Of a stretch of DNA of 64,000 bases, positions 36,131 through 53,804 are shown piece after piece; position 1 is the stretch's first letter, and the number at the start of each line of letters is the position of its first letter. This stretch comes from an uncultured Gemmatimonadales bacterium (GTDB lineage Bacteria; Gemmatimonadota; Gemmatimonadetes; Gemmatimonadales; Gemmatimonadaceae). The stretch spans positions 128,001 to 192,000 of the forward strand of contig CAWKNZ010000010.1 in assembly GCA_963851265.1 (NCBI GenBank), in the 5' to 3' direction. Below the pieces are notes generated by a model. That model was not told the DNA's origin, did not search any database, and saw nothing but the letters and a program-made list of their open reading frames with translations. Both the position numbers and the translations under genes were made by a program.

Positions 36131-37921
36131 GTGACGCTCCCGGACCTCGCGATCGCCCTGCTCGCCGGCGGCGACGCGTCCGCGTTAGGCGGCGCGCTCG
36201 TCGTCGCGCCCGGGGCCGAGGAGGGCGAGCGCTGGCTCGGCGCGCTGCGGGCCGCGCTCGGCGCGCGGCGGCCCGCGGCGCCCTGGCGCGTGGTGCCGAG
36301 CGCCGTGAGCGACGACCGGCTCGCGGGCGGGCTCGACGTCGTCGCGACGCTCGCGGCCGGCACGCGCGTGGACGGGCGCGGCCTGCTGGCCGAAGCGGAG
36401 GGGGGCCTGCTCGTGCTGCCGCGCGCGGCCGCGGCGAGCACGGCCACGCTGGCGCGCGTGGCCGACGCGGTGGACGGCGGTCGCGTCGCCGTCACGGCCG
36501 TGGTGTGCGGCGAGGAGGAGGCCGCGGAGCTGCCGCTGCTGCTCGCCGAGCGGCTCGCGTTACACGTGCGACTCCCGGCGGGGTACGCCCCCGACGTGGC
36601 GCACGTCGGCGCGCCCGGTGTGGCCGACGTGCACGAGTCGGACGCACCGGCCGCGGTCGCGGCACTCTGCGAGGTCGCGGAGGCGTTCGGCGTCGAGTCG
36701 ACGCGCGCCGCGGTGTTCGCAATTCGGGTGGCGCGCGCGATCGCGCGTACCGCGGGGCGTGGCGCGCCCACGGACGACGACCTCGCGGCCGCCGTCCAGC
36801 TCGTCCTCGCCCCGCGCGCCGTGCGCGTCCCGGCCGACGCGTCCGCGCCGGCCGCGCCGGCGACCGACGCCGGCCGCGGGCCCGAACAGCCCGACGCCAC
36901 CGCGTCCCGCGACGCACCGACACCCCCGGCACCCCCGACGCCGAACGACGGTCCGGGCGACGGTGACGCGTCGGGCACGGTGGGCGAGATTGGCGCGCAC
37001 GAACTGCTCATCGCCGCCGCACGCGCCGCGCTGCCGCCGGAGCTGATCGCCGCCGGTCGCGGCGGGACGGCCGCGCGCTCGGCCACGGCGCGCGGTGCGG
37101 CGGGCCGAGCCGCCCGCGCTCAACCGCGCATGGACGACCGCCGCGGCCGGCGCGTCGGGACGCGCCCCGGGCACCCGCGCGGCGGGAGCCGGCTCGATCT
37201 CGTCGAGACGCTCCGCGCCGCGGCGCCGTGGCAGGGCGCGCGGGGGCGCGCGCCGGGCGGGGCGCTCGCCGTACGCACCGGCGACTTGCGCGTCGAGCGC
37301 CGCCGCCGGGCGTTAGGCACCACCACGGTGGTCGTGGTCGACGCGTCGGGTTCGGCGGCGTTGGGCCGGTTGGCCGAGGCCAAGGGTGCGGCCGAGCTGC
37401 TGCTGGCCGAGAGCTACGCGCGGCGCGACCGGGTCGCGCTCGTCGCGTTTCGCGGCGCGGGCGCGAGCGTGCTGCTGCCGCCCACGCGCGCACTCGCGAG
37501 GGCGCGGCGCGCGGTGAGCGCACTCCCCGCCGGCGGCGGTACCCCGCTCGCTTCGGCGCTCGTCACCGCCGCGGACCTCGCGCGCGCGGCGGGGCGTGCC
37601 GGCACGCGCCCGGCGGTCGTGCTGCTCACCGACGGCCGGGCGAACGTCGCGCTCGACGGCGCGCCCGGGCGGGAGCGGGCGCGGGCCGATGCCGAGCAGG
37701 CGGCGCGGGCGCTCGCCGCGACGCTCGCCGCGGCGGGCGGACTCGCGGTGGTGGTGGACACGGCGGTGCGCGGCGGGCCCGAAGCGCGGACGCTCGCCGC
37801 GGCGGCGGGCGCGCGCTACGTCGCGCTCCCGTACGCGTCCGCCCGCACACTGCACGGGGTCGTGCGCGACGTCCTCGCCGAGCCGAGCGCCGCGGCCGGC
37901 CTCGCGGCATCCCACGCATGA
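36131..37921 (+). CDS. bchD: Magnesium chelatase subunit D
   Basis: DDRLAGGLD, Pro-rich linker, vWA motifs VVDASGS, GGGTPLA, LLTDGRANV. Confidence 0.9.
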   Translation: MTLPDLAIALLAGGDASALGGALVVAPGAEEGERWLGALRAALGARRPAAPWRVVPSAVSDDRLAGGLDVVATLAAGTRVDGRGLLAEAEGGLLVLPRAAAASTATLARVADAVDGGRVAVTAVVCGEEEAAELPLLLAERLALHVRLPAGYAPDVAHVGAPGVADVHESDAPAAVAALCEVAEAFGVESTRAAVFAIRVARAIARTAGRGAPTDDDLAAAVQLVLAPRAVRVPADASAPAAPATDAGRGPEQPDATASRDAPTPPAPPTPNDGPGDGDASGTVGEIGAHELLIAAARAALPPELIAAGRGGTAARSATARGAAGRAARAQPRMDDRRGRRVGTRPGHPRGGSRLDLVETLRAAAPWQGARGRAPGGALAVRTGDLRVERRRRALGTTTVVVVDASGSAALGRLAEAKGAAELLLAESYARRDRVALVAFRGAGASVLLPPTRALARARRAVSALPAGGGTPLASALVTAADLARAAGRAGTRPAVVLLTDGRANVALDGAPGRERARADAEQAARALAATLAAAGGLAVVVDTAVRGGPEARTLAAAAGARYVALPYASARTLHGVVRDVLAEPSAAAGLAASHA

Positions 37922-37931
37922 CCCACGGCCG

Positions 37932-38936
37932 GTGAGCGCCGTGGTGGAGCCGTCCCTCCCGCCGTCCCTCGCGCCGGCGGTCGTCGGTCGGCGCGGGGTG
38001 GGGCGTGCCCTCCGCCTGCTCGCGGCCGCCGCGGGTGTGCTCGCGTTCTGGTACGGCGTGACGGGCCTGTTGCTCGCCCTCGAACGCAGCGCGGCGACGC
38101 GGCTGCTCGCGCTCGTGCTCGCGGTCGTCGCGGCCGCGGTCGGCGTCGCCTGCGTGCGCGCGGCGCGCGGCGGCACGGGCGCGGGCGCCGGCGCGCGCGC
38201 CGTGCTCGGCGGCGCGCTCCTGTGGACCTGCGTCTCGGCCACATTCTACGGCGGGTGGGTGGTCGGGCCCGCTCCGTCAGGCGGCTCGGGTGCTGCGAGG
38301 GATGCCGGGCACGCGCCGTCGCTGGCGAGGGCGGGCGACGCGCTCGCGGCGACGGCCTACAGCACCGTGCTCGCGGCCGCGCTCCTGCTGCTCGCGCTGC
38401 GGGTCGCGCGCGGGCCCGGGTACGGTCGGGGCCAGGCCGGGGCGCCAGACGCGAGCGGCGCGGCACGCTACGCGCCCGCAACGTTCGGCACGCTCTGGGC
38501 GGCACATGAGCTCGCGAAGCTCAACGTCTTTCTCGGCGTCGCCAGCCCCGGTGCCGCGTACCTGCCGGACTATCTCGCGCACCTCCGCCGCTTCTTCGGG
38601 CCGGAGCACAACTCCCCGCTGCTCGCGTGGAGCGTGGTCGCGCTCGGGACGGCGGCGGCGCTCGCGGTGCGCGACGCACGCCGCGACCACGCGCTCCCGG
38701 CGCGCCGAACGGGCCTATCGCTTCTCGCCGGCATCCTCGCCCTCGCCGCATTCGAGCACGCGATGCTGGGTGTCCGCTCGACGCCGGCGTGGTGGGACGC
38801 GTTCGTCACGTGGCGCGAGGGGCCGCGCCACACGCGCCCGAGCGGACTGCACCCTGGGACCGCGCCCCGCGACTCCGACGGTCGCGGCGCGCGCGCCGAG
38901 GGTACACCCGAAATGCCGCCAGCACGGGGTGCGTGA
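37932..38936 (+). CDS. puhE: Putative photosynthetic complex assembly protein PuhE (DUF3623-like)
   Basis: Multi-TM; GWVVGP, HELAKLNVFLGV, YLPDYLAHL, LAAFEH. Start approximate. Confidence 0.72.
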   Translation: MSAVVEPSLPPSLAPAVVGRRGVGRALRLLAAAAGVLAFWYGVTGLLLALERSAATRLLALVLAVVAAAVGVACVRAARGGTGAGAGARAVLGGALLWTCVSATFYGGWVVGPAPSGGSGAARDAGHAPSLARAGDALAATAYSTVLAAALLLLALRVARGPGYGRGQAGAPDASGAARYAPATFGTLWAAHELAKLNVFLGVASPGAAYLPDYLAHLRRFFGPEHNSPLLAWSVVALGTAAALAVRDARRDHALPARRTGLSLLAGILALAAFEHAMLGVRSTPAWWDAFVTWREGPRHTRPSGLHPGTAPRDSDGRGARAEGTPEMPPARGA

Positions 38937-38973: not shown

Positions 38974-40323
38974 TCAACGCAGCGTGTAGAGGTACGCCGC
39001 GATGTCGCGCGCGTCGCGGTCCGTCACGTCGAGGTTCGGCATCGCCCCGCCCGGCTCGTACTGTTGGGTCGTGCGCAGCCACGCGGTGAGGTTCTGGGGC
39101 GTGTTCGGCAACCGCCCCACGATGTACACGCGTCGCCCGTACCGGTCGAGCGGTGGTCCCACCTCGGCGTCCACCGGCCGGGCGACACCCGGGATCGCGT
39201 GGCACGAGCCGCAGCCGTAACGGCGCATCGCCGCCGGGCCACGCGTCGCGTCGCCACCTTCGACGAGCCAGGTGGGCGTGCCGCCGTGCGCGTCGCGACA
39301 CGCGGACGGCCCGCCCGCGATCGTGGCGGCGCAGACGGCGACCGCTGCCGCGCGCGCGGCCGGACGCCGTATCGGAGACGGGGCGTCGGACTCGCGCAGC
39401 CAGCGCACGAACAGGGCGCTCGCGACCCCAAGGTACACGATGCCCGCGGGGACCCACATGATCACGCCCGCCAGCTGCTGATCCTCGAGCGGCGTGAGTC
39501 CCCATGCGGCCGTGGTCCCGTAATGCCCGGTGTACCACGGGCGTACCGCGAAGGTGAGCGCGGCGCCGAGCAGGGCCATCGGCACGCCGGCAGCTGTCAC
39601 GTACAGCAGGCGTGCGCCGTCGCCGAAGCGGAGGGGCGCGTGCGACCGATGACGGGGCGCGGGACGCACGACCGGCCACCAGAACAGCGCGGCCGCGCCG
39701 AGGAGCGTGACGTGCTCCAGCGCGTGCACGGCTGGCCGGCGGAGCGCCCAATCGTACGGGGCCGGGGCGTGCCAGAACAGGACGCTGGCCAGGTGCAGCG
39801 TGATCGCTACGCCGGGCGAGGCGAGCAGCGCCGCCGCGGCGCGCACGCGGGCGCGCGCGGCCCACACGCGCCCCACCCGGACGCGCGTGCCGTCCGGAAA
39901 CGCCCAGAGCATCGCGAGCGCGGGCACGCCCGCGGCGAGGAGTGGCGCCGCGACGAGGATGAGCACCAGGTGCTGGCCCATGTGCGCGGTGAAGAGCGCG
40001 TCGGCCATCGCGTCGAGCGGCGTGAGCAACGCGAGCGCGAGCGCGACGAGTCCGGCCACGTACGCCCACGCGCGCCAGCGGACGATCCCGCGTCCCGCAC
40101 CGGCGCGCGCCCACGCGCGCCGGACGCCTACCGCGTACCACGCGCCGGCCGCGACGAGCCCCGCGACCACACCCGGGCTCGCGGGCCAGGTCCGCCAGAG
40201 ATCGTGCGGCTCGGGCGCGAGTCCCGGGTGTGCGTGCGCGAGTGCCGGGAGCGCAGCGACGGCGAGCGTGGCGCGCGCGACCGCCGAGCGCGCCGCGCGC
40301 GCGATCCGTGCGTTCGCGTTCAC
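38974..40323 (-). CDS. CtaG-type (caa3) oxidase assembly protein fused to a C-terminal cytochrome c
   Basis: LFTAHMGQHLVL, FWHAP, HALEH, DQQLAGVIMWVP followed in frame by YGCGSCHAIPG...AMPNL. Confidence 0.8.
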   Translation of the reverse strand: MNANARIARAARSAVARATLAVAALPALAHAHPGLAPEPHDLWRTWPASPGVVAGLVAAGAWYAVGVRRAWARAGAGRGIVRWRAWAYVAGLVALALALLTPLDAMADALFTAHMGQHLVLILVAAPLLAAGVPALAMLWAFPDGTRVRVGRVWAARARVRAAAALLASPGVAITLHLASVLFWHAPAPYDWALRRPAVHALEHVTLLGAAALFWWPVVRPAPRHRSHAPLRFGDGARLLYVTAAGVPMALLGAALTFAVRPWYTGHYGTTAAWGLTPLEDQQLAGVIMWVPAGIVYLGVASALFVRWLRESDAPSPIRRPAARAAAVAVCAATIAGGPSACRDAHGGTPTWLVEGGDATRGPAAMRRYGCGSCHAIPGVARPVDAEVGPPLDRYGRRVYIVGRLPNTPQNLTAWLRTTQQYEPGGAMPNLDVTDRDARDIAAYLYTLR

Positions 40324-40328
40324 GACCG

Positions 40329-41006
40329 TCAGGTTCCGCACGGCGGCACCAGGAACGGGGCGATCCCGTGCAGTACGCTCGCAGTGACGAAGACGAGGCT
40401 CGTCAGGATTCCCGACATCGCCATGAACCTCGTGCGCCCCTCGCCGATCTCGAGCGCGGCGCGCACGTTCGTCGTCCCGCCGAGGCGCGGCGCGCCGCGG
40501 TCGGTTCCGGCGCGGTCGGTTCCGCCACGGTCGGCGTCGCCGCGGCCGGCGCGGTCGTTCGCCGATCCGCCTCCCGTGCGACCGGCCCCTTGTTGTGCGC
40601 CCTGCGGCGCGTGATCGGCCGAGCCCTCGCCCCCGCCGCCCCCCTCTCCGCGCGTGCGCGTCCATTCGCGGTAGGCGAGCAGTCCGGCGCCGACGCCCAC
40701 GGCAACCGCGGCGAGGCTCACGGCGAGGGTGACCGCCTGCAAGCCGCCGAAGTCGGGCGTCCCGCGCGGATAGAGCCCTGGGTAGCAGGTGTGCGCCGCG
40801 AGCGCGTAGTCGGCGAGCGACTGAACGCTCCACGCGGCCGGCGCGCCGAAGATTCCGAACCAGAGCGCCGCGTAACTCGCGTCGCCGCGCGCGGGTGCGG
40901 GGTGCCCGGCCTCGTGCCGCGCCATCCGTTCGCCGGGCGTCCCACGACGCCCGCCCGCGACGTCGGCGTTCGCCCCGGGCTGCGGCGTCCCGTCGTGTGC
41001 GGTCAT
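40329..41006 (-). CDS. Membrane protein of the oxidase operon (possible accessory subunit)
   Basis: Three hydrophobic segments (LWFGIFGAPAAW...) and a GGAGG RBS, between coxI and ctaG. Confidence 0.6.
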   Translation of the reverse strand: MTAHDGTPQPGANADVAGGRRGTPGERMARHEAGHPAPARGDASYAALWFGIFGAPAAWSVQSLADYALAAHTCYPGLYPRGTPDFGGLQAVTLAVSLAAVAVGVGAGLLAYREWTRTRGEGGGGGEGSADHAPQGAQQGAGRTGGGSANDRAGRGDADRGGTDRAGTDRGAPRLGGTTNVRAALEIGEGRTRFMAMSGILTSLVFVTASVLHGIAPFLVPPCGT

Positions 41007-41014
41007 CGCGCCTC

Positions 41015-43519
41015 CTACCGCAGATGCGGTGTGACGTAGAGCGACGTGAACACCGCGAGCCACACCACGTCGACGAAGTGCCAGTACATCGCGGCGTTGG
41101 TCACCGCGAGGTGCCGGCGCGCCGTGAAGTGCCCGCGCGACGCGCGCACGAGCACGACCAGCAGCATGATCAGGCCCGCCGCGACGTGCGCGCCGTGGAA
41201 GCCGGTAATCGTGTAGAACAGCGAGGCGGACGCGTCGCTCGACGGGCCGAAGGTCTTCTGGCGGTACTCCACCAGTTGCAGCGCGAGAAACACGACGCCC
41301 ATGCCGATCGTGACCGCCACGCCGAGCTTGAGGCGCCCCTCGTTGCCGCGCCGCGCGCCGCGCTCCGCCCAGATCAGCACACCGCTGCTCGCGACGAGGA
41401 GCGCGGTGTTGACCCCGACGAGCTTGAGGTCGGGCGACCCGTAGAGCGGCCACGGGTTCGTCGACATCGAGCCGAGGTAGAAGTAGCTGAACAGGAAGTA
41501 GGCGAAGAGCGCCGCCTCCGTCCCGATCACGCAGCACATCCCCCAGAACCCGACCGAACTGCTGCCGAGCCCCGACGTCGGAAGGTCGCCGAAGGGCGTG
41601 TCGACGTCGCCGGTGTGGTGCAGCTGGTCCGACGACGGCCAGAGCCACACCACGATCGAGACCAGCGCCGCGCCAGCGCTCGACGCGGCGAGCCACCAGC
41701 GCCCGAACAGCAGGCCGTAGCTGAGCGCGAGCAACGACGCCGCGAGCACGACCGGCGCGTACGAATCGTCGGGCATGCGGATCACGGCGGTCGGCTCACC
41801 GTCGAGGGCGGAGGTCTCGAACGTCTCGCGCCCGTCGTCCAGCACCGGCCCGCAGTCGATGACGCTGCGCCCCGATCCTTCGGTCCCCAGCCGATCCTCC
41901 CACAACGGATGCCGGCTCGCCACCGTGGGGATCACGGCGAAGTTGTACGGCGGCGGGGGAGAGCTGGTCGCCCATTCCAGCGTCCCAGCGTCCCACGGAT
42001 TGGGACCGGCGCGCTGGCCGCGGTAGATGCTCACGACCACGTCGTAGACGAACAGGAGCATGCCGAGCGCGAAGAGCAGCGCGCCAACGCTCTCGACGAG
42101 GTTGGCCGACTCCCAGCCGAGCCCGGCCTGGTAGGTGTAGACGCGGCGTGGCATGCCGAGCATCCCGACGATGTGCATCGGGAAGAACAGCACGTTGGTC
42201 GCGACGAGGAGCGTCCAGAAGCTCCACTTCGCGAGCCGCTCGTCCATGAGCCGCCCGGTGAATTTCGGGAACCAGTAGATGATGCCGGCGAGCACCGGGT
42301 ACACGTTGATCCCGACGAGCACGTAGTGCAGGTGCGCGACGACGAAATACGTGTCGGTGAGCTGCCAGTCGAACGGCACCGCGGCCGTCATCACGCCGTT
42401 CACGCCGCCGATCACGAAGAGCAGGACGAACCCGAGCATGAACAGCATCGACGCCGTGAGGCGCGGGCGCCCGTGGTAGACCGTCGCGATCCACGCGAAC
42501 GTCGACACGCCGCTGGGGATCGCGATGATCATGCTCGCCGCGCCGAAGAAGGACAGCGAGAGCGGCGGCAATCCGGTGGCGAACATGTGGTGCACCCAGA
42601 CGCCGAAGCCGAGCAGCGCGGTGACCACGGTCGAGAGCGCGACGAAGGTGTAGCCGACGAGCGGGCGCCGCGCGAACGTCGGGAGCGCGTCCGACACGAT
42701 CCCGATCGCGGGCAGGACGATCACGTACACCCACGGGTGCCCGAACATCCAGAACAGATGCTGCCAGAGCAGCGGGTGCCCCTCGCTCGTCGCGTCGTAA
42801 AAGTGGAAGCCGAAGCGCCGGTCGAGGTAGAGGAAGATCAGCGCCGCCGAGAGCGCCGGCACCGCCGCGAGGTTCACGAACGACGTCGACAGCGTTCCCC
42901 ACACGATGATCGGCAGCCGGTTGAGCGACATCCCCGGCGCGCGCGTGGTGAAGAGGGTGACGATGAAGTTGACGGCGCCGACCGTCGTCGAGACGCTGAG
43001 CAGGAGCAGCCCGAGCGCGTAGTAGTCGATGTTGCGGCCCGGGTTGTACGCCGCCCCGGCGTAGGGCACGTAGTCGAACCACCCCGCGTTGGGCATCTCG
43101 CCGAGCACTGCGCTGGTGTAGATGAAGATGCCGGCGGCGAGGAAGGTCCAGTACGACAGCGCGTTCAGCCGGGGGAACGCCATGTCCCGCGCGCCGAGCA
43201 TCAGCGGCCAGAGGAAGTTGCTGAAGCCGCTCAGGACCGGCGAGGCGTAGAGGAAGATCATCGTCACGCCGTGCATGCTGAACAGCTCGTTGTACTGCTC
43301 CGGCCCGAGCAGCGATTCGTTGGCGCGGGCGAGCTGCGCGCGCAACGCGAGCGCCTCGAGCCCGCCGACGAGCAGGAAGACGAACGCCGTGACGAGGTAG
43401 CGCTTGCCGATCGTCTTGTGGTCGACGCTCGACAGGAATCCGCGCCAGCCGCGCGGCGTCTCCCAGGTGCGTTGCAGGCGCGCGACCGGGGCGCGGTCGA
43501 CGGCGACGAGGGTGGCCAA
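41015..43519 (-). CDS. ctaD: Heme-copper oxidase subunit I fused to subunit III (atypical A-like)
   Basis: SVDHKTIG, MHGVTMIF, FGHPWVY, WVHHMF, VAHLHYV, GMPRR; C-terminal TGFHGAHV and YWHFVDVVW of subunit III. TTG start with GGAG RBS. Confidence 0.9.
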   Translation of the reverse strand: MATLVAVDRAPVARLQRTWETPRGWRGFLSSVDHKTIGKRYLVTAFVFLLVGGLEALALRAQLARANESLLGPEQYNELFSMHGVTMIFLYASPVLSGFSNFLWPLMLGARDMAFPRLNALSYWTFLAAGIFIYTSAVLGEMPNAGWFDYVPYAGAAYNPGRNIDYYALGLLLLSVSTTVGAVNFIVTLFTTRAPGMSLNRLPIIVWGTLSTSFVNLAAVPALSAALIFLYLDRRFGFHFYDATSEGHPLLWQHLFWMFGHPWVYVIVLPAIGIVSDALPTFARRPLVGYTFVALSTVVTALLGFGVWVHHMFATGLPPLSLSFFGAASMIIAIPSGVSTFAWIATVYHGRPRLTASMLFMLGFVLLFVIGGVNGVMTAAVPFDWQLTDTYFVVAHLHYVLVGINVYPVLAGIIYWFPKFTGRLMDERLAKWSFWTLLVATNVLFFPMHIVGMLGMPRRVYTYQAGLGWESANLVESVGALLFALGMLLFVYDVVVSIYRGQRAGPNPWDAGTLEWATSSPPPPYNFAVIPTVASRHPLWEDRLGTEGSGRSVIDCGPVLDDGRETFETSALDGEPTAVIRMPDDSYAPVVLAASLLALSYGLLFGRWWLAASSAGAALVSIVVWLWPSSDQLHHTGDVDTPFGDLPTSGLGSSSVGFWGMCCVIGTEAALFAYFLFSYFYLGSMSTNPWPLYGSPDLKLVGVNTALLVASSGVLIWAERGARRGNEGRLKLGVAVTIGMGVVFLALQLVEYRQKTFGPSSDASASLFYTITGFHGAHVAAGLIMLLVVLVRASRGHFTARRHLAVTNAAMYWHFVDVVWLAVFTSLYVTPHLR

Positions 43520-43562
43520 GGGGTTCTCCGCGGGTGGCGAGGCGGGCGTGGACGCGCGGGCG

Positions 43563-44894
43563 TCAGCGCAGCGTCTGCAGGTAGTGGACGACGGCGAGCA
43601 GGTCGTTAGGCGGCAGCGGCAGCGTCGGCATCCGGCTGCCCGGCTTGGCACCCTGCGCGTTCGCGACCCAGCCGGCGAGGTTGCCCGTCGTGTTCGGCAG
43701 GATCCCGCCGGCGATCGTCTCGCGCGAGGCGACGTGCGTGAGGTCGGGCCCGAGGCGGCCCAGCGCGTCGCTCCCGCGCACGGCGTGGCAGGCGCCGCAG
43801 TTGGCGAGGAACACCGCCTGGCCGGCCCGCGCCAGCGAGTCGCCGCCCGCGCTGGCGGCGGACGGCGCCACGACCGGAGACGGCGCGGGCACCGGGGGCC
43901 CGAAGCCGTGCACGGCGGCGCCGGTCGCGGTGGGCGGCGGCGCCGTGGCCGGCATCGATTCGCCGACGGGCTGGTTGGCGCGGCCGGTCGCCGCGCTCAT
44001 GATCGCGGCCGGGACGAGGGCGGGCGCGGACTGCCGCTGCCCCTCCGCCCAGCGCTCGAACGCCGCCGGCGGATCGGCCACGACGTAGAGCGCCATCTTC
44101 GCGTGCTCCATCCCGCAGTACTCGGCGCACTGGCCGCGGTACCGCCCCGGGCGGTCCGCCTGGATCCACGTCTCGTTGCGCTGCCCGGGGATCAGGTCCG
44201 TCTTCCCCGCCAGCTCGGGAATCCAGAAGCTGTGGATCACGTCGGCCGTGCGCAGCCGGATGCGCACGGGCCGCCCCACCGGGATGTGCAGCTCGTTCGC
44301 CGTGGTGAAGGTGTGCTCGGGGAGCGAATCGCGATACTGCGCCTCCCACCACCACATGTGGCCCGTGACGTCGACGGTGATCGCGGGCGCGTCCGGCGGG
44401 CGGGCGGCGGCGCGGAGGGTCGCCGCCGTCGCGACGAAGGCGACGACGAGGATGACCACCGTTGCCGCGGTGCCCCAGTAGATCCACGGCAGCCCCTGGT
44501 CTCCACCGTGACGCTTCGCGTTGCCGTGCGTCGCCGCGGCGGCCTGGCCGCCGGATTGCGGCCCCGCGCTATCGTCGACCGCGAGCGCGTGGCGCATCGA
44601 CGGGCGCTCCCGCGCGCCCTCCCCCGCGTCGGGGCGGCGCCGGAAGATCGCCACGAGCAGGACCGCGGCGGTCGCCACGACCACCGCGACCGAGATCCCC
44701 GTCAACCACCACCCGAGCGTCGCCTCGACCTCGGCGGCCGGGCCCGACGGACGCATGTAGCTCGGCGAGGCCGCGTTGCCGCAGGCCGCGAGGGTGAGGA
44801 TGCCTAACGCTGCGACGAGGGCGGGTGCCCGCCGTGCCGCGCCGGTCGTCCCCGCCGCCGCCACGCGGGCGGCGCGGCGCTCACTGGTCAGCAT
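43563..44894 (-). CDS. ctaC: Cytochrome c oxidase subunit II with CuA and C-terminal cytochrome c
   Basis: Lipoprotein LAAC, GHMWWWE, DVIHSFWIP, CAEYCGMEHAKM, CGACH. Confidence 0.92.
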   Translation of the reverse strand: MLTSERRAARVAAAGTTGAARRAPALVAALGILTLAACGNAASPSYMRPSGPAAEVEATLGWWLTGISVAVVVATAAVLLVAIFRRRPDAGEGARERPSMRHALAVDDSAGPQSGGQAAAATHGNAKRHGGDQGLPWIYWGTAATVVILVVAFVATAATLRAAARPPDAPAITVDVTGHMWWWEAQYRDSLPEHTFTTANELHIPVGRPVRIRLRTADVIHSFWIPELAGKTDLIPGQRNETWIQADRPGRYRGQCAEYCGMEHAKMALYVVADPPAAFERWAEGQRQSAPALVPAAIMSAATGRANQPVGESMPATAPPPTATGAAVHGFGPPVPAPSPVVAPSAASAGGDSLARAGQAVFLANCGACHAVRGSDALGRLGPDLTHVASRETIAGGILPNTTGNLAGWVANAQGAKPGSRMPTLPLPPNDLLAVVHYLQTLR

Positions 44895-45516
44895 TCTGCG
44901 CCCCGCGCAGCGTGCGTGCGCCGGTCGTATCCTCGTCCCCCAGGTCGCCCTGCTTGCCGCGGTCCGCGAGCGGCGCGGGGAACGTGCCGTGGAACGACTC
45001 GATGTACGTCACGAGCTTCCATAGCTGCTCGGGCGGGAGCGCGCGCCCCCAGGCCGGCATCCCCTGCGGCCGCCCCTCCCAGAGCGTCTTGTAGATCTCG
45101 GCGGGCGAGCCGCCGTACCGCCAGGACCGGTCGCGCAGGTTGGGACCCATGCCGCCGCGCAGGTCGTAACCGTGGCAGTCGGCGCAGTTCATCCGCTGGT
45201 AGAGCTCCCCGCCCTCGCGCGCGGCCGCGGAGTCGCCCTCGTACGGGTTGCGGATGGTGCTGGCGAGCGTGTTCGGCGTCGCGCCCGCCCAGTCGCCCAG
45301 CGGAACGCGGGCGAGCGTTCCCTCGTCGGGGATCGTGTTCGTGCCGCGCCCGGCACCGCGGATCTCCTGCTCGTGGCCGGCGTCGGCGCACGCCGCGAAC
45401 GCGGCGGCGGTGGCGCAGAGGGCGAGTAGCGCGGCGGCACGCGCCGCCGTTGGGCGCATCGCGGTGGGGCGGCTCGTCGTGGGACGCATCGTCGTGGCGC
45501 GCATCGTCGTGCTCAC
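44881..45516 (-). CDS. Monoheme cytochrome c lipoprotein (probable electron acceptor of the PQQ enzyme, XoxG/cytochrome cL-like role)
   Basis: FAAC signal, NPYEGD, CADCHG, GGMGPNLRD..WRYG, GMPAWG. Confidence 0.8.
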   Translation of the reverse strand: MSTTMRATTMRPTTSRPTAMRPTAARAAALLALCATAAAFAACADAGHEQEIRGAGRGTNTIPDEGTLARVPLGDWAGATPNTLASTIRNPYEGDSAAAREGGELYQRMNCADCHGYDLRGGMGPNLRDRSWRYGGSPAEIYKTLWEGRPQGMPAWGRALPPEQLWKLVTYIESFHGTFPAPLADRGKQGDLGDEDTTGARTLRGAQNADQ

Positions 45517-47462
45517 CGGTGGCCTGTCCCCGAGCCCGGCGGGCTTCCCGTGGCGCCCCCCTGCTGCTGGTTGGGCAGCGAGGGGACCGCGGGGACGTTC
45601 TCGGGGAGCGTGTAGACGTACAGCGTCCCGCCGCGCGGCGGGAAGCCCTTCTCGGCCTGCAGCGTCATCGCGAAGCCGCCGACGCCGCTCATCACCGCCA
45701 CGTACTGGTGCCCGTCGGGGCCGCGGTAGGTCATCGGCGGGCTGTGGATGCCGCTGCCTAACTTCTGCGACCAGAGCACCTGTCCGGTGCGCGCACTCAC
45801 CGCCCGGAACCAGCCGTCGGTGGTGCCGTAGAAGACCAGGTCGCTGGCCGTGACCATCGGCCCGCCGGCGACGTAGAGGTGCTCGGGGATCGCCCACGCG
45901 CGCTTGCCCGCGGCCGCGTCCCAGGCGATCAGCTCGCCGTAGTTCCCCCCCGGCCCCGGGTGGCGCGTCATGTCGGCGCCCCAGTACGGCGTGCCGGCGA
46001 TGTAGCTGACCTCGCGCCCGCGGTAGTCCATGCAGGCGTTGTTGACCGACGCGTAGTACCAGCCCGTGCGCGGCGAGTACGCCGCGGGCTGCCAGTTGGA
46101 TACGCCGATGTCGGGCGGGCAGATGTTGCGCACCCAGCGCCCCGGCGGGATCGTCTGCTTGTCCGCGTTGACGATCGGTTGCATGGTCTTGGGGTCGATC
46201 CCGCTCGACCAGTTCTCGTAGCCGAACGGCTTGGCGACCAGCACCTCTCCCGTCTCGCGGTCGATCGTGTAGGCGTACCCGTTCCGGTTGAACTGGACCA
46301 GCGTCTTGCGCGTGCGCCCGTTCACCGGGATGTCGGCGAGCACGTTCCAGTTCACGCCGTCGTAGTCCCACTGGTTGTTAGGCGTGAACTGGAAGGCCCA
46401 GCGCGCGTACCCCGTGTTGGCGTCGCGCCCGAACACCGCGCTCGTGAACAGGTTGAGCCCGGGCCGCTGGTCGGCGTTCCACGGTCCGGGGTTGCTCGTG
46501 CCGTTGTAGACGAGGTTGAGGTCGGGGTCGTACGAAATCCACCCCCAGACCGCGCCGGCGCCGTGCTTCCACGCGTCGGCGGGCCAGGTCCGGGCGCCCA
46601 TGTCCTTGCCCTTGAGCCAGCTGTAGAACGGCTTGTAAGTGTCGTTGATGCGCACGAGCGAGTCGGGGCCGGTGCTGAAGGCGCGCCAGAGCTCCTTGCC
46701 CGTGTGTACGTCGAGCGCGGCCATCCAGCCGTGCGCGCCCATCTCGCCTCCGGAGTTGCCGACGTAGACCTTGTCGCCGACGACGAGCGGCGCCATGGTC
46801 ATCGTGACGCCGTCCTCCACGTTCGCCATCTTCGTGCGCCACACCTCCTTCCCCGTCGCGGTGTCGACGGCAACCGTGTGGTCGTCGAGGAGGTTGTAGA
46901 TCAACTTCCCGTCGGCGATCATCGCGCCACGCGTCACCGCGTCGCAGCACGCCTTTCCGATCGCGGCCGGCGAGGGGTTGGGCTTGAAGGTCCACTTGAG
47001 TGCCGGCGCGCCGGGCGTCGTGAGGTCGAGCGCGTACGCGTTGCTCGGAAAGGGCGCGACGACGTACATCGTATTCCCGGCGACGAGCGGCGCGGCCTCG
47101 TGCCCGTGCCGGACCGCGGTCGAGAACGAGAAGGCGAGCTTGAGCCGCCCCACGTTGGCGGGCGTGATCTCGGTCAGCGGGCTGTAGCGCGTCATCCCGT
47201 AGTCGCGCCCGGTGGTCAGCCAGTTGCCGTCGGTCGTGCCCGGCGGGTACCACCGGGCGGCGCGCTCGAGCATGGCCGGGTTGGCGACGGCGTTCGCGCC
47301 CCCGGGGGCCGCGGCGCCCGGCGCAGCGTTAGGCGCGGCGTCGGGCCGGAGGGTGCCGGCGGCGAGGCCGCGGTCGTCGCGCTTGCCGCAGGCGGCCGCG
47401 AGCGTGAGGGCGCCCGCGGCGAGGGCGGTACGGGTGCGGGAGGAGCACGTCGAGTGAGGCAT
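45513..47462 (-). CDS. PQQ-dependent methanol/ethanol-family dehydrogenase, XoxF-like (lanthanide motif)
   Basis: RYSPLTEITPANV, vicinal ACCDAVTRG, GGEMG, WGWISYDP, NPGPW, WDYDG; lipoprotein signal LAAAC. Confidence 0.88.
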   Translation of the reverse strand: MPHSTCSSRTRTALAAGALTLAAACGKRDDRGLAAGTLRPDAAPNAAPGAAAPGGANAVANPAMLERAARWYPPGTTDGNWLTTGRDYGMTRYSPLTEITPANVGRLKLAFSFSTAVRHGHEAAPLVAGNTMYVVAPFPSNAYALDLTTPGAPALKWTFKPNPSPAAIGKACCDAVTRGAMIADGKLIYNLLDDHTVAVDTATGKEVWRTKMANVEDGVTMTMAPLVVGDKVYVGNSGGEMGAHGWMAALDVHTGKELWRAFSTGPDSLVRINDTYKPFYSWLKGKDMGARTWPADAWKHGAGAVWGWISYDPDLNLVYNGTSNPGPWNADQRPGLNLFTSAVFGRDANTGYARWAFQFTPNNQWDYDGVNWNVLADIPVNGRTRKTLVQFNRNGYAYTIDRETGEVLVAKPFGYENWSSGIDPKTMQPIVNADKQTIPPGRWVRNICPPDIGVSNWQPAAYSPRTGWYYASVNNACMDYRGREVSYIAGTPYWGADMTRHPGPGGNYGELIAWDAAAGKRAWAIPEHLYVAGGPMVTASDLVFYGTTDGWFRAVSARTGQVLWSQKLGSGIHSPPMTYRGPDGHQYVAVMSGVGGFAMTLQAEKGFPPRGGTLYVYTLPENVPAVPSLPNQQQGGATGSPPGSGTGHR

Positions 47463-47518
47463 CACCACGGATCGGGGCACGGCGGAACAGGGCGCAGGGC
47501 GCGGACGCGGCGTGGCGG

Positions 47519-48529
47519 TCACGGCCGTGCGGGGAGCGGGACGATGTAGAGCGCGTTCTGCTGCATCGACGACACGGCGAGCCGGCCGCGGCGCGTGTCG
47601 ACGGCGATCCCGGCCGGCGAGGTCAGGCCCGTGAGCACGGGCACGAGCGGCTCGCCGACGCGGAAGCGATACACGGCCCGCGCATCCCAACTCGACACGA
47701 ACCAGCCGCCCCCCGGGGCGGGGCGCAGCCCGTCGACGCGACCGCCCGGGAGGCGGACGACGACGACCTTGCCGCTGTCCGCCGGGCCGACGCGCTCGAG
47801 CACGCTGTCGCCGAAGGTCGTCACGAGGGCGCGCCCGTCGGGCCACGCGGCGACGCCGTCCGGCCGCCCGAGGGCGAGCCCGCGCGCTACCACGTGGACG
47901 GTTCCCCCCGGTCGGCCCGGGACGATGCGGTAGACGGCGTCCAGGTCCTGGGACGTGTCGGCCCGGACGGCGCCGTGCGCGCCGGGGTGCCGGTCGGGGC
48001 CGGTGTCGGTGACCCAGAGCGAGCCGTCGTCGGCGTAGACGACGTCGTTGAGTCGGAGCCCCGGAGTCGGGACGACGCCGATCGGGCGCCCCGTCCGGCG
48101 GTCGAAGAAGCGCACGGCGGCGAGGTCGCACACGGCCAGCGTGTCGCCGCGGATGGCGAGCCCCATCGGGGCGTCGAGTCGGACGCCCCCTCGGCCGCCG
48201 CGAATCCACGCGCGGTCGAGCACCCGCCCATCCGGCGCGACGCGGCTGACGTATCCGTTGTCGTCGCGCGCCGTCGGACTGCCGTTCACGTTCGCGACCA
48301 GGTAGACGTCGGCCGTCGAGTCGTAGACGAGGTTTTCGGGCCCGCGGAAGCCGACGCCGCGCACGACCGTCGTGTCGCCGCGTCCCCGCCGCCCGTCCGG
48401 CCATGCGCGCGCGGGCGCCCGGCCCGCGGTCGCGGCGAGGACGACCGCGGGAAGCAGGAGCGCGAGTTCGCGTCGCCGCGCGTGCGGGCCGGACGCGGGC
48501 GGGCGCACGGGGGCGTCGGGGCGCGTCAC
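47519..48529 (-). CDS. Secreted beta-propeller protein (SMP-30/gluconolactonase-like)
   Basis: Arg-rich signal; GFRGPENLVYD, LDAPMGLAI, LNDV, PDGVA, SPAGIAVD repeats. Confidence 0.7.
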   Translation of the reverse strand: MTRPDAPVRPPASGPHARRRELALLLPAVVLAATAGRAPARAWPDGRRGRGDTTVVRGVGFRGPENLVYDSTADVYLVANVNGSPTARDDNGYVSRVAPDGRVLDRAWIRGGRGGVRLDAPMGLAIRGDTLAVCDLAAVRFFDRRTGRPIGVVPTPGLRLNDVVYADDGSLWVTDTGPDRHPGAHGAVRADTSQDLDAVYRIVPGRPGGTVHVVARGLALGRPDGVAAWPDGRALVTTFGDSVLERVGPADSGKVVVVRLPGGRVDGLRPAPGGGWFVSSWDARAVYRFRVGEPLVPVLTGLTSPAGIAVDTRRGRLAVSSMQQNALYIVPLPARP

Positions 48530-49302
48530 GGGCCGGTGCTCGCGATGGGCAGCGAAAGCCCCGCGAGGAGCGTGAGCGGGTGCGCCGCGTCGAGATAGCG
48601 CCGTTCGCCGCGGGGCACCTCGTCGCCCGCACGCGGCAGCCCGGTCGCCACGTAATCCAGCAGCACCGTGACGGCCACCCCGTGCGCCCACGTCGCGCGC
48701 GCGAGCCGCGCGAACGGGTAGGCGTCGGTGACCAGATCGAGCTCGAGCTTGTGCGTGTACGAGCTGCGATCGTCAGGCCGCTGCGCAGGACCGTACAGGT
48801 CGCCGACGTGGGCGCTCAGGTCGAACCACCCCGCGGCATCGGCGGTCCGGACGAGCGCCCCGGTGGCGACGAGCGTAACGGTCGGCGAGTTCGCGTGGAG
48901 GTACGTCGAGCCGACCTCGCTCGCCGTGTAGCGCGTGAACGGGTTACCCTGCTCGGTCGCGTTCGGCGTCCACTGCACGCTCCCCAGGAGCCCGACGCGG
49001 GGAATCGGCGTCTGCACGGTCCCGACGAGCGTCAGCTGCAGGTTGCTCTCGGGCGGGAGCCGGCGCACGCTGCCGTCGCTCAGCCGCTCGACGCGGGGCG
49101 CGCCGGCGATCGGCGACCGGTTGAGCGCGGGAAAGAAGGTGAGCGCCGGCGAGCAGAGGACGTGGCACGGCGCCGCCGGTGCCTGGGCGGCGACCGGTGC
49201 GGCGACCGGCACGGCGAGTGCCGTTAGGCAACGGGCGGCGGCCGACCGCCCCGCGTCCCGCGCGCGCGGGACGGCCGCCGCGCGGCCCACCCGCCTCGCC
49301 AT
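48526..49302 (-). CDS. Hypothetical secreted protein (possibly outer-membrane)
   Basis: Signal-like N-terminus, CHVLCSP, alternating beta-strand pattern; stop overlaps the next start. Confidence 0.55.
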   Translation of the reverse strand: MARRVGRAAAVPRARDAGRSAAARCLTALAVPVAAPVAAQAPAAPCHVLCSPALTFFPALNRSPIAGAPRVERLSDGSVRRLPPESNLQLTLVGTVQTPIPRVGLLGSVQWTPNATEQGNPFTRYTASEVGSTYLHANSPTVTLVATGALVRTADAAGWFDLSAHVGDLYGPAQRPDDRSSYTHKLELDLVTDAYPFARLARATWAHGVAVTVLLDYVATGLPRAGDEVPRGERRYLDAAHPLTLLAGLSLPIASTGP

Positions 49303-49366
49303 CCGCCCGAACACCCCGTGACGCACGTGTCCTCCCGCCCGCCATGACCGCAGCAGGCTCCGCCGG

Positions 49367-49423
49367 AGTACAAATGAGTACGTACAGAATTGTACGTACA
49401 GGGTCGTACACGCGTGTAATTAC
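49367..49423. promoter_or_regulatory. AT-rich GTAC-containing palindromes between the dehydrogenase/oxidase operon and the Crp/Fnr gene
   Basis: GTACGTACA-gaat-TGTACGTAC (49378-49399) and TACACGCGTGTA (49407-49418). Confidence 0.5.
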
Positions 49424-49547
49424 GGCGTGAGCGCGGTGGCGTGCAAGTCCCGGGCGCGGGGGCCCACGCCGTGCGCGCCACGGCCTTGGGATATCTTTGT
49501 GCGACCGCGCCCGGCACCGCCGGTCGTGCCACGCGCAGCCTCCGCCC

Positions 49548-50333
49548 ATGCCTCCGTCCCGCTCCGCCGCCCGCCCGCCCGCTGCCGGAACGCCTCGCGC
49601 ACGCGGGGCCGCTCCGGCGCGCACCGCCACTCGGGGTGACGAACGCAATCGACTCCTGGCTCGCCTGCCCAGCGCCGAGTACGCCCGCCTGGCGGCGCAC
49701 CTCGCGCCCGTGACCTTCCCCGCGCGCCATGTCGTGTACGAGCCGGGGGCACCGATCACGCACGTCTACTTCCCGCAGGCCGGGATGTTCTCCCTGGTCC
49801 TGCCGCTCGCCGACGGCGGCACGGTCGAGGTCGGGATGGTCGGCCGCGAGGGCATGGCCGGCATCCCGGCCGTGCTCGGGGTCGACGCGCCGGCCATCCG
49901 CTGCATCGTGCAGCTCGAGGTGCGCGCGCAGGCCCTGCGCGTCCCGGTGCTGCGCCGCCTGTCGCGCGGCGACGCCGCGCTCCACGTCCTCCTCAAGCGG
50001 TACGTCCAGACACACATGGACCAGATCGCCCAGGGGGCGGCGTGCAACCGGCGGCACACGCTCGAGCGCCGCTGCGCGCGCTGGCTGCTCATGAGCCACG
50101 ACCGCGCCGAGGCCGACGCGTTTCCGCTCACGCAGGAGTTCCTCGCCTACATGCTCGGCGTGCACCGCCCCGCCGTCGTCACGGCGTTAGGCGTCCTCCG
50201 GAACGCGGGGCTGGTCGAGTCGTCGCACGAGCGCGGGGGCGGAATCCGCATCCTGGACCGCCCCGGGCTGGAGCGCGCGGCGTGCGAGTGCTACGCCGCG
50301 ATCCGCCGGCGGTTCGACGCGGTGTTCGCGTGA
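49548..50333 (+). CDS. Crp/Fnr family transcriptional regulator
   Basis: NRLLARLP, VEVGMVGREG, ACNRRHTLERRCARWLL, LTQEFLAYMLGV, LERAACECY. Confidence 0.9.
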   Translation: MPPSRSAARPPAAGTPRARGAAPARTATRGDERNRLLARLPSAEYARLAAHLAPVTFPARHVVYEPGAPITHVYFPQAGMFSLVLPLADGGTVEVGMVGREGMAGIPAVLGVDAPAIRCIVQLEVRAQALRVPVLRRLSRGDAALHVLLKRYVQTHMDQIAQGAACNRRHTLERRCARWLLMSHDRAEADAFPLTQEFLAYMLGVHRPAVVTALGVLRNAGLVESSHERGGGIRILDRPGLERAACECYAAIRRRFDAVFA

Positions 50334-51776: not shown

Positions 51777-51979
51777 TGGGTTTCCTCGTGAGGGTGAGAA
51801 CGACCATCGCGCGTCGGACGGTAGCATCAGCACCGGCGCGCGGGATCGGCCAGGCCGATGTCGGCGCGCCCGGCCCGCACGCGGCAACGCCGGAGGGGCA
51901 TTGTCAGGATCCATGCTCTCGCGTTCGCCGCTTGCTCGCGGCCCGGAGCCGCGCACGATGATTGCTTGGCCGCCCACTC

Positions 51980-53804
51980 ATGCGCGCCAAACGGTCGCCG
52001 CCGACCCTCCGTAACGAGAAAACGCCGGTCCCGGCTGCCGCGCGCGCCTTGGGCCAGGTCGCCGCCCCGTCCGCCGCCCGAACCGCACCAGACGACTCGA
52101 TCGGGAGCACCGGCACCGACGACCCGACGGCGGACGTGCCGTCCCTGCCGCGTCTCGCGCTGCTCGATGCGGCGATCCGTCAGACTCGCGACGCGATCGT
52201 GATCACCACGGCCGATCTCGACCCGCCCGGACCGACGATCGTCTTCGTCAACCCCGCGTTCTGTGCCATGACGGGGTACGCCTCCGACGCGCTGCTCGGG
52301 CGCTCCCCCCGCATCCTGCAAGGGCCGGAGACCGACCGCAGCGTGCTGGATGCGCTCCGCGCGGCGCTTGCCGCCGCCGCCCCGTGGACCGGCGAGACGG
52401 TCAACTATCGCTCGGACGGCCGCTCGTACCGCGTGCATTGGCAGATCACCCCCGTGCACGCGGCCGGCGCGGGCCCTGCCTTCGGGCCGGCGTCCGCGGC
52501 GCCGGGCACCGGCCCGATCACGCATTTCGTCGCTGTCCAGCACGATGTCACGGAGCGGCGCGCACTCGAGGCGCGCGTGCGGACGACCGGCACGCTCGAG
52601 GCACTCGGGCGCCTCGCCGGCGGGGTCGCGCACGACTTCAACAATCTGCTCACCGTCATCGCGGGCGGGACCGAGTTCGCGCTCGACCTCCTGGGCCCCG
52701 ACCACCCCGCGCGCGCCGAGCTGGCCGACGTGCAGACTGCGACCCGGCGCGCCGCGGCCCTCACGCGCCAGCTGCTCGCCTTCGGCCGCCGGCAGGCATT
52801 CGTGCCGGCGCCGCTCGACGTCAACGCGGCGGTCGCGGCGGTCGAGCCGATGCTCGCCCGGATCGTCGGCCCCGGGATCGCGGTGGTGGTGGAGCTCGCA
52901 GCGTCGAGGGCGCTGGCGCGCGTCGACGCCGCGCAGCTCGACCAGGTGCTCGTCAATCTCGCGGCGAATGCGCGTGATGCGATGCCCGGCGGCGGCCTGC
53001 TCACCATCGCGACGGCCGCTGCCGTCGCGCCCGAGGACGCGTCGGGTGGAGCGAAGGACGCGGGTTCGACCGCCGCGGACGCCCGAACGTCGTACGTGCG
53101 TCTCACCGTGGCCGACACGGGCCACGGCATGGACGCCGCGACCCAGGCGCGGCTCTTCGAGCCCTTCTTCACGACCAAGCCGGCAGGCCGCGGCACGGGG
53201 CTCGGCCTCGCGACCGTGTACGGCATCGTCGCCCAGAGCGGCGGGCACGTGCGCGTGGAGAGCGCGCCGGACCGGGGCACGACGGTCCACGTGTATCTGC
53301 CGTCGGCGGTCGGTGATGCGGCGGCCGCCGCCGCGGCGGACTCCCCGGCAGCGGCATGAGACCGACGATCCGCGTGGGTCGGAGCTCGTCCTCGTCGTCG
53401 AAGACGAGCGGCTGGTGCGCGCGGCGCTCCAACGGCTGCTCGAGTCGCGCGGCTACTCGGTGCTCGCCGCGCGGCACGGCGAGGACGCGCTCCGGCTGTA
53501 TGCGGCACACGGCGGCGCGGCGGGCCGGATCGCGCTCGTGCTCACGGACGTCGTGATGCCCGCCGTGGACGGCCCGACGCTGGTAGCGCGCCTGCGGGCG
53601 GTCCGGCCGCGGCAGAAGGTGGTATACCTGTCGGGATACGCCGCCACGGGTCCGCGCGCCGAGGGGCTGGGAGGGGGGTTGGACGGCGTGACCGTCATGC
53701 GGGACGCGGTCACGGCCGTCGTCGAGAAGCCGTTCGCCGCGGCCGCCCTCGCGCGCGCCGTGCGCGAACTGCTCGACCGCGCCGACGCATCGGAGGGGGC
53801 GTGA
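51980..53804 (+). CDS. PAS hybrid sensor histidine kinase/response regulator (receiver domain out of frame near 53350)
   Basis: PAS (FVNPAFCAMTGY, PRILQGPETD), HisKA AHDFNNLL, NARDAMP, FEPFFTTK..GTGLGL. The receiver (VLVVEDE, LTDVVMP, EKPF) follows in the +1 frame to 53804. Confidence 0.8.

Follow-up and report, generated by a model that had tools for sequence, protein, structure and literature searches.

The window analysed here is a stretch of 64,000 nucleotides (positions 128,001 to 192,000 of GenBank contig CAWKNZ010000010.1, part of contig C10 in our numbering) from the genome of an uncultured Gemmatimonadales bacterium, which is 4.6 Mb long and 94% complete. It carries an eight-gene operon encoding a pyrroloquinoline quinone (PQQ) dehydrogenase related to XoxF3, a cytochrome c and a cytochrome oxidase. 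Operons of this xoxF3-cox type are already known; what sets this one apart are two residue-level departures, one in the oxidase and one in the pocket of the dehydrogenase. From gene content, motifs, selection and distribution we infer, with a probability of about 0.55, a divergent xoxF3-cox module, in which the oxidation of an alcohol or aldehyde in the periplasm, one larger than methanol, would send electrons through cytochrome c to an O2-reducing oxidase with a remodelled D-channel and little or no proton pumping.

Gene content and integrity of the operon

Family scans agree with the original prediction, made from the DNA sequence alone, of eight co-oriented genes and a divergent Crp/Fnr gene, both in their positions and in their family labels. 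The eight open reading frames (ORFs) run on the minus strand from 49302 down to 38974, and the Crp/Fnr gene diverges from 49548. The genes had been described as mostly overlapping; several do overlap, but others are separated by 5 to 10 bp, depending on the start codon chosen. Compared with the closest relative, metagenome locus L221, the ratio of nonsynonymous to synonymous substitution rates (dN/dS) is 0.16 to 0.39 across all eight genes, and DNA identity is 77 to 85% over the entire operon, odd residues included. These data confirm an intact operon that evolves under purifying selection. Sequencing error or decay was ruled out as the source of the odd residues, as these are identical in L221 and dN/dS is below 0.4 in all genes. 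The operon genes, each followed by the codons discussed below, are:

48526..49302, minus strand: secreted protein with no family; start uncertain (49302 or 49326); kept in L113 to L115 and L221; dN/dS 0.17
47519..48529, minus strand: beta-propeller of the SMP-30/gluconolactonase-like type (SGL; PF08450, E = 2.5e-7)
45513..47462, minus strand: PQQ dehydrogenase of the XoxF3-sister subclade with an altered pocket (TIGR03075, trees, residue table)
46359..46361, minus strand: codon of D368, the lanthanide-type second Asp of WDYDG (residue alignment)
45867..45869, minus strand: codon of A532; Trp in MxaF, XoxF5 and XoxF3 references (residue alignment)
45672..45674, minus strand: codon of F597; Trp in MxaF/XoxF references, with a loop about 20 residues shorter behind it (residue alignment)
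44881..45504, minus strand: monoheme cytochrome c, XoxG3-like, with a predicted lipid anchor (PF13442)
43563..44894, minus strand: oxidase subunit II with a CuA motif and a C-terminal heme c, without the K-channel entry Glu (TIGR02866 above cutoff)
41015..43519, minus strand: fused oxidase subunit I+III of the "HPWVY" clade, 834 amino acids (COX1 at 37-481, COX3 at 659-829)
42731..42733, minus strand: TGG codon of W263, which replaces the D-channel Glu (E286) (alignment)
42503..42505, minus strand: codon of S339, which replaces the K-channel Lys (K362) (alignment)
40329..41006, minus strand: small membrane protein, encoded between CoxIII and CtaG; 46 of 80 related loci have a homolog
38974..40323, minus strand: Caa3-type CtaG fused to cytochrome c (PF09678, E = 7e-60; PF00034)

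The dehydrogenase and its substrate pocket

The dehydrogenase scores 566 bits against TIGR03075 (cutoff, 480). The vicinal Cys pair, Glu and Asn ligands and WDYDG motif previously read from it are confirmed as C172-C173, E240, N324, D366 and D368, next to R393 and a lipobox-like Cys26; thus, the lanthanide-type ligand set (Glu, Asn, catalytic Asp, second Asp) and the Cys pair are all present. Its best match in the PDB is 4MAE, which we take to be XoxF2, followed by the XoxF structures 6OC5 and 6DAM. An ExaF or PedH identity was ruled out, with 392 to 550 bits for XoxF/MxaF structures versus 283 to 285 bits for quinoprotein ethanol dehydrogenases. The second Asp suggests that the enzyme uses a lanthanide, as had been proposed. 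It is a marker and not proof, as XoxF1 carries the same Asp and yet behaves like a calcium enzyme (PMC9291206). In M. trichosporium, the XoxF3 protein is strongly upregulated with cerium.

In a 48-row tree, the window dehydrogenase falls into a 14-row subclade, apart from MxaF and XoxF5 and sister to a 10-row clade that contains M. tundrae XoxF3 and a paralog from contig C9 of the same genome. This tree was built by a fast method without XoxF1, XoxF2 and XoxF4 references, and rerooting may have shifted its support labels; it omits L140, L146 and L147, which failed a motif filter, and the partial sequences L152 and L154. The XoxF3 anchor, L136, is carried on a plasmid of M. tundrae T4, and the accession of its neighbour is labelled xoxJ3 beside xoxF3 in the supplement of PMC11102522. 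A second, quick tree of 43 rows recovered the same subclade with 21 rows and a support of 100 in the SH-like approximate likelihood ratio test (SH-aLRT). The nearest named relatives are metagenome-assembled genomes (MAGs) of Gemmatimonadaceae.

The subclade departs from its relatives in the pocket, as seen in a comparison of 24 subclade sequences with 29 other XoxF3-like rows and with MxaF and XoxF5 references. At the position of A532, Trp is found in 0 of 23 subclade members and in 26 of the 29 other rows; at F597, the respective counts are 0/23 and 28/29. At the W328 position, 17 of 23 subclade members have Arg instead of the Trp that is present in 29/29 of the others. Every MxaF and XoxF5 reference has Trp at all three positions. 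The loop behind F597 comprises 14 to 16 residues in the subclade (14 in the window enzyme) versus 32 to 37 in the references. Thus, two Trp residues and some 20 loop residues that are otherwise kept in all methanol dehydrogenase references used have been lost, and L221 shows the same pocket state, with neither Trp and a short loop. We take A532 and F597 to be equivalent to W476 and W540 and the three Trp positions to line the PQQ site and substrate funnel, as in MxaF structures. The broad-substrate type II dehydrogenases 1KV9 and 1KB0 have GWGGV where methanol enzymes have GVGGW, and type II enzymes have Val at the F597 position. Judging from these residues, the pocket is likely widened and the substrate is probably other than, or larger than, methanol, simple methanol being unlikely.

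On a Mesorhizobium plasmid, pqqABCDE lie directly upstream of a subclade dehydrogenase, which points to PQQ as the cofactor of the subclade. The cultured carrier in this case is Mesorhizobium sp. INR15 (L135, three plasmid records), which combines pqqABCDE and the subclade dehydrogenase with an oxidase of the Trp class described below. Another cultured carrier, Methylocystis iwaonis (L138), encodes an XoxF3-like enzyme, XoxJ and a Trp-class oxidase on a plasmid. HPWVY oxidases of this class are also present in the cultured Methylobacter sp. (L013), Massilia horti (L017) and Rhodanobacter sp. (L030).

Channel residues of the oxidase

The original prediction did not mention that subunit I of the window oxidase has GHPWVY and PSGVSTF where canonical enzymes have GHPEVY and PTGVKIF. 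To place these departures, subunit I was aligned to 2YEV and Bacillus subtilis aa3-600; R. sphaeroides numbering was mapped through the canonical oxidase paralog of this genome. Among the best 80 of 599 related loci, the E286 position is occupied by Trp in 77, by Asp in 2 and by Glu in 1 (W263 in the window), and Lys is found at the K362 position in none (S339 in the window). The six His ligands, Y288, D132, N139 and N207 are kept in 80/80 and N121 in 79/80. The window protein retains the six His, Y265 and the residues D112, N119 and N101, equivalent to D132, N139 and N121, respectively. In subunit II, the CuA motif is present, and the K-channel entry Glu, found in 23 of 23 canonical proteins, occurs in only 1 of 71 Trp-class partners and in 0 of 20 partners of other Lys-less oxidases. 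The glutamate of GHPEVY, which defines the A1 type, is missing. Compensation by the YS motif of the A2 type was rejected, as the window oxidase has FGHP where 2YEV has YSHP.

This Trp class is widespread and, in sequence trees, monophyletic: all 99 of its members group together (support 0.994) among 150 subunit I sequences, and the 25 Lys-bearing sequences split off with support of 1.0. Its members share conserved polar gains in helices II, IV, V and VII (Y91, S97, S100, T178, T179, T211, T297 and T300). A structure model of subunit I (predicted local distance difference test [pLDDT] score, 92.5) has the A-family fold and is closest to aa3, caa3 and bo3 oxidases. We found no description of an HPWVY oxidase in the literature searched, which left out most subscription papers, so that a prior one may exist; the available coxMNOP literature yielded no channel information. 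The sister of the Trp class is a "Q class" of 22 sequences, exemplified by the contig C9 oxidase (L164, C9:90477-101572). The latter keeps E286 but has D132N and K362Q and lacks N121, the D-channel being damaged at its other end.

The joint absence of E286, K362 and the subunit II E101 could mean that the oxidase is non-electrogenic and that the protons for its chemistry are those set free by the dehydrogenase in the periplasm. It would then be an uncoupled alcohol oxidase serving detoxification, product excretion or O2 scavenging. Such a reading agrees with the consensus that K-channel proton delivery requires K362 (PMC10341450) and with the sister class found beside canonical xoxF3, which also lacks K362 and mostly alters D132 and N121, as if cytoplasmic channels were dispensable; a canonical caa3 oxidase is available in the genome for energy conservation. 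However, the retention of D132, N139, N207 and, with one exception, N121 throughout the Trp clade is hard to square with an unused D-channel, and no conserved periplasmic proton path was identified in the clade residue comparison. We consider the uncoupled oxidase unlikely.

A switch of substrate, with the enzyme acting mainly as a peroxide or nitric oxide (NO) reductase that needs fewer channel protons, seems hardly credible. K362M variants keep peroxidase-type turnover, which fits such a switch. So does the weak NO reduction by A-family enzymes, but NO reductase families lack the active-site Tyr (PMC11214002) that is present in all 80 oxidases (Y265 in the window), and the modelled fold is closest to the O2-reducing types named above.

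Pairing of the dehydrogenase and the oxidase

The dehydrogenase subclade is tightly paired with the Trp oxidase clade. In a metagenome scan that started from the dehydrogenase, 78 of the 80 loci matched the window enzyme best, and all 33 loci with a readable motif had an HPWVY oxidase (in the other 47, none was readable). Conversely, K362 is missing in all 70 oxidases that have a PQQ dehydrogenase in the fetched DNA, and such a dehydrogenase was found beside 0 of 24 Lys-bearing oxidases. In these counts, some loci may repeat one genome, and kin are not independent. Beside one Trp-class oxidase, in a Terracidiphilus MAG (L063), the XoxF3-like protein has neither the Cys pair nor the Glu nor either of the two Asp ligands and is possibly inactive or metal free.

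Genomic context

The operon had been called self-contained, which is an overstatement, as neither pqqC nor pqqE was found in this 94%-complete genome. A pqqC search gave no match here, whereas 23 of 46 genomes, including 18 of the 28 phylum carriers, passed the cutoff in the same search. Matches to pqqE were all below the cutoff, and pqqA-D queries had no tblastn match in the genome. As previously noted, the window has no xoxJ or pqq genes; annotated xoxJ queries match only contig C9. The operon had also been described as bc1-independent, which says little in a genome where no bc-type cytochrome b was found and alternative complex III genes are present instead (C2:958800-964400; L156, L158). 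Cyclic electron flow would have to use the alternative complex III, as no bc-type cytochrome b was found.

The same genome encodes several other modules: a canonical A1 caa3 oxidase operon on contig C2; a canonical xoxF3-like operon with xoxJ on contig C9, whose oxidase lacks the Lys but keeps the Glu; and, at C7:417473-428301 (L165), another operon with a Trp-class oxidase, accompanied by two PQQ dehydrogenases in tandem. These two keep the Cys pair and the DxD motif and are distant from all solved enzymes (at best 274 bits, to a type II alcohol dehydrogenase). The suggested search for pqqA-E and genes of one-carbon (C1) metabolism found only the latter above the cutoff: a tetrahydromethanopterin-dependent formaldehyde oxidation cluster (fae, an mtd-type gene, fhcD, an MptN-like gene and others) occupies C7:503000-523300 (L163 and beyond), and there is an FdhF/YdeP protein. 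No Fhs, RuBisCO or above-cutoff glutathione-dependent formaldehyde dehydrogenase was found in this genome. With these genes, C1 compounds could supply the cell with energy, the C9 operon being the simplest route.

These C1 genes would fit an ordinary XoxF3 methanol system in the window, its oxidase pumping normally and its substitutions compensated and of no physiological weight, in a methylovore that burns formaldehyde via the tetrahydromethanopterin pathway. Every catalytic and metal ligand is kept in the dehydrogenase, and A-family oxidases lacking a K-channel do occur in nature. Nevertheless, we regard this as quite improbable: the C9 operon with its xoxJ is the better fit for a methanol role, pocket residues constant in MxaF, XoxF5 and XoxF3 references are altered in the window enzyme, and the K-less oxidases of iron oxidisers have been reported to keep the D-channel (10.1101/2020.03.01.968255).

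The neighbouring photosynthesis cluster and other flanking genes

A full photosynthesis cluster occupies approximately positions 144 to 38936 of the window (hemA, bchPG, ppsR, bchFNBHL, acsF, puhABC, pufCML, bchOZYXC, bchID and puhE). The operon abuts it, as the original prediction stated: puhE and the last operon gene are convergent, with 37 bp between their stop codons. The features on either side of the operon are:

37596..38936, plus strand: puhE, the last photosynthesis cluster gene, a neighbour and not a member of the operon (TIGR03055/PF12291; ORF bounds, the true start lying further in)
49303..49547, no strand: divergent promoter region; its core near 49365-49425 is AT-richer and palindrome-rich
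49548..50333, plus strand: divergent regulator of the Crp/Fnr family (PF13545, Crp HTH; PF00027, cNMP domain)

It had been suggested that alcohol-derived electrons might also reach the reaction centre; in this reading, the operon was recruited beside the cluster to let its cytochrome c reduce PufC. PufC is encoded in the cluster, and it might in principle be within reach of a cytochrome c anchored in the membrane, as is established for cytochrome cy of Rhodobacter. The distribution of these genes tells otherwise. In 400 other genomes of the phylum (the unpublished G156 included), with the top 30 oxidase loci read and no further Trp-class members among 40 more oxidase matches, pufM is found in 20 and the Trp oxidase clade in 28. 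The latter is present in 1 of 20 pufM-positive versus 27 of 380 pufM-negative genomes, and in the only genome with both (G214) they are 3.2 Mb apart on one contig. XoxF-like genes, found in 124 genomes (again counting G156), occur in 3/20 phototrophs versus 121/380 nonphototrophs. True orthologs of the operon, 69 to 71% identical and with the same first seven genes, are found in G071, G073 and G282, all of them pufM negative. Across 180 related loci, no photosynthesis gene was found in the 80 metagenome loci with a related dehydrogenase, and none in the 100 genome loci except for one weak match of an unassigned ORF.

Downstream of the operon, the closest relative differs. The similarity of L221 to the window ends at the last operon stop codon, and where the window has puhE, L221 has co-oriented Rieske and cytochrome b genes (L221:10052-11703), within 5 bp of the gene for the CtaG-cytochrome c fusion. 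Cytochrome b-like ORFs are also found in L063, L071 and L081. Paired PpsR-type palindromes occur at 4894/4920 and 34906/34931, inside the photosynthesis cluster only; neither the PpsR consensus (paired TGT-N12-ACA) nor an FNR-type box was found in the operon promoter. Two single PpsR matches lie inside coxI, and the total of six matches is not beyond chance (7 of 100 shuffles). Four DNA runs matched only short pieces, none across the puhE-ctaG junction, and give no evidence either way. With co-occurrence, synteny and PpsR sites all against it, and with the two units convergent, light coupling as a conserved link is largely refuted and has become very improbable for this operon; operon and cluster are most plausibly chance neighbours that meet at a lineage-specific junction.

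A Crp/Fnr homolog is present in only 2 of 80 related loci, so the regulator is not a fixed part of the operon; the short palindromes in the AT-richer stretch between the two form a candidate operator. Among the remaining operon genes, the secreted protein has no Pfam or NCBIfam match; its nearest atlas clusters are beta-barrels (score 0.94, low recognition), a weak lead according to which it is possibly a small outer membrane beta-barrel. The small membrane protein likewise matched no family, nor anything in the atlas at 0.9 or above, and by analogy with PMC4013037 is probably subunit IV-like. Further away, a PAS histidine kinase stops at 53359 within window positions 51962 to 53804, and a receiver domain is carried on in a different frame that offers it no nearby start codon, which looks like a frameshifted CckA-type hybrid kinase. 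Positions 55630 to 56616 encode a fusion of a ClpN domain with a GntR HTH domain, and two IS481-family transposases past the operon (58600-59691 and 61714-62940) hint at a mobile flank.

Proposed mechanism

In the preferred reading, the divergent xoxF3-cox module with a weakly pumping or nonpumping oxidase, the apo-dehydrogenase would be loaded with a lanthanide and with scavenged PQQ, the latter because no pqqC or pqqE was found. Electrons from the substrate would pass to the cytochrome c, then to heme c and CuA of subunit II, heme a and finally heme a3/CuB. The dehydrogenase, cytochrome c and CoxII all carry lipobox-like LAAC/FAAC motifs, as read from the sequence, consistent with lipid anchoring. 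The cytochrome c is 40% identical over 89 amino acids to that of the M. tundrae xoxF3 cluster and had no match to the XoxF5-linked cytochrome c in the same comparison. O2 would be reduced to water at the oxidase active site, given that the His-Tyr pair is kept. The K-channel would be dead in both subunits I and II, and the cytoplasm would supply the chemical protons via a remodelled D-channel that retains D112, N119 and N101, where the conserved polar residues Y91, S97, S100, T178 and T179 could bypass W263. Such an oxidase would conserve charge with little or no proton pumping and serve a periplasmic oxidation as a dedicated electron sink of low yield.

Several observations weigh against this reading. 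The dehydrogenase tree had no references for three XoxF types, and the best structural match, 4MAE, is presumably one of these, XoxF2. The pocket roles assigned to the three Trp positions are carried over from MxaF structures, and the literature search found nothing to confirm them. XoxF3 is barely expressed in M. silvestris. No PQQ dehydrogenase is present in the fetched DNA of 41 of 97 Trp-class loci, 29 of which have at least 5 kb upstream, and 28 Trp-class loci adjoin canonical XoxF3-like enzymes; therefore, the Trp oxidase is not dedicated to the subclade dehydrogenase alone. Finally, the L221 operon runs on into Rieske and cytochrome b genes, so that quinol-derived electrons may feed its oxidase.

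A bolder version, which we put forward tentatively and hold to be doubtful, makes this widespread module a new functional class, combining an XoxF3-derived lanthanide quinoprotein opened to substrates other than methanol (in the branch that bears the Arg, anionic ones) with an A-family oxidase lacking both canonical proton channel termini and reducing O2 by a third proton route. If true, the rule that A-family enzymes need Glu or YS plus Lys would be broken, and many soil "xoxF3 methanol oxidisers" would have been miscounted. In soil and weathered rock, XoxF3 outnumbers all other XoxF types (340 of 411 sequences) and has been studied least (PMC10875860). It is currently read as a marker of methanol oxidation, and a subclade with a rebuilt pocket would alter such counts and broaden the range of lanthanide biochemistry. 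The paired oxidase naturally departs at both of the residues that underlie proton-pumping models; because it occurs in cultured bacteria, A-family proton routing can be tested directly.

Comparison with known systems

The arrangement of a lanthanide-type PQQ dehydrogenase, cytochrome c and oxidase as one module, central to the original prediction, holds and is of a published type (PMC10875860, PMC4013037). In Acidobacteria and Gemmatimonadetes, xoxF3 is accompanied by genes for CoxI/II/III, CtaG, cytochrome c, XoxG and a small conserved protein between CoxIII and CtaG (PMC10875860). That work reports XoxF3 as lacking biochemical data, credits the cox/ctaG link to a 2014 review, and finds xoxJ to be optional, with 4 of 13 Gemmatimonadetes systems having it; a preprint legend names SMP-30 for the Gemmatimonadetes systems (10.1101/2022.03.08.483559). 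The window operon shares this full gene set, SMP-30 included, and differs in its sister-subclade dehydrogenase, fused subunits I+III, CtaG-cytochrome c fusion and lack of NRAMP. The available text of these two sources does not discuss oxidase channel residues.

The set of PQQ dehydrogenase, cytochrome c, coxII/I/III, small membrane protein and ctaG also matches "COX operon a-II" (PMC4013037), named "A1 subtype a" in the later PMC6431628, an aa3/caa3 operon that often includes, as here, an MxaF-related PQQ dehydrogenase and short COX4-like proteins. Both sources treat its oxidases as A1, with no mention of E286 or K362 loss in the available text. With Thermus caa3 (2YEV), mycobacterial CtaD and R. 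sphaeroides 1M56, the window oxidase shares the fold (template modelling [TM] scores, 0.83 to 0.88), six His, His-Tyr pair, CuA and D-channel entrance, and with 2YEV also the I+III fusion. It differs from A1 and A2 oxidases in having Trp for E286, no YS, no K362, Ser for T359 and no subunit II entry Glu. The joint loss of the subunit I Lys and subunit II Glu is shared with the K-channel-less A oxidases of iron oxidisers (10.1101/2020.03.01.968255, 10.64898/2026.01.22.701106). These are described in the former source as A2 type with an essentially conserved D-channel, whereas the window clade has neither Glu nor YS at the top of the D-channel and, unlike them, accompanies PQQ dehydrogenases.

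The window dehydrogenase is approximately 54% identical to M. tundrae T4 XoxF3 (T4_00353; PMC11102522), whose gene cluster, unlike the window operon, includes xoxJ. The Cys pair and the Glu/Asn/Asp/Asp ligands are common to the window enzyme, T4 XoxF3 and the solved structures 4MAE, 6OC5, 6DAM and 1W6S, whereas the replacement of Trp at two conserved positions and a C-terminal loop about 20 residues shorter set the window enzyme apart from all of them.

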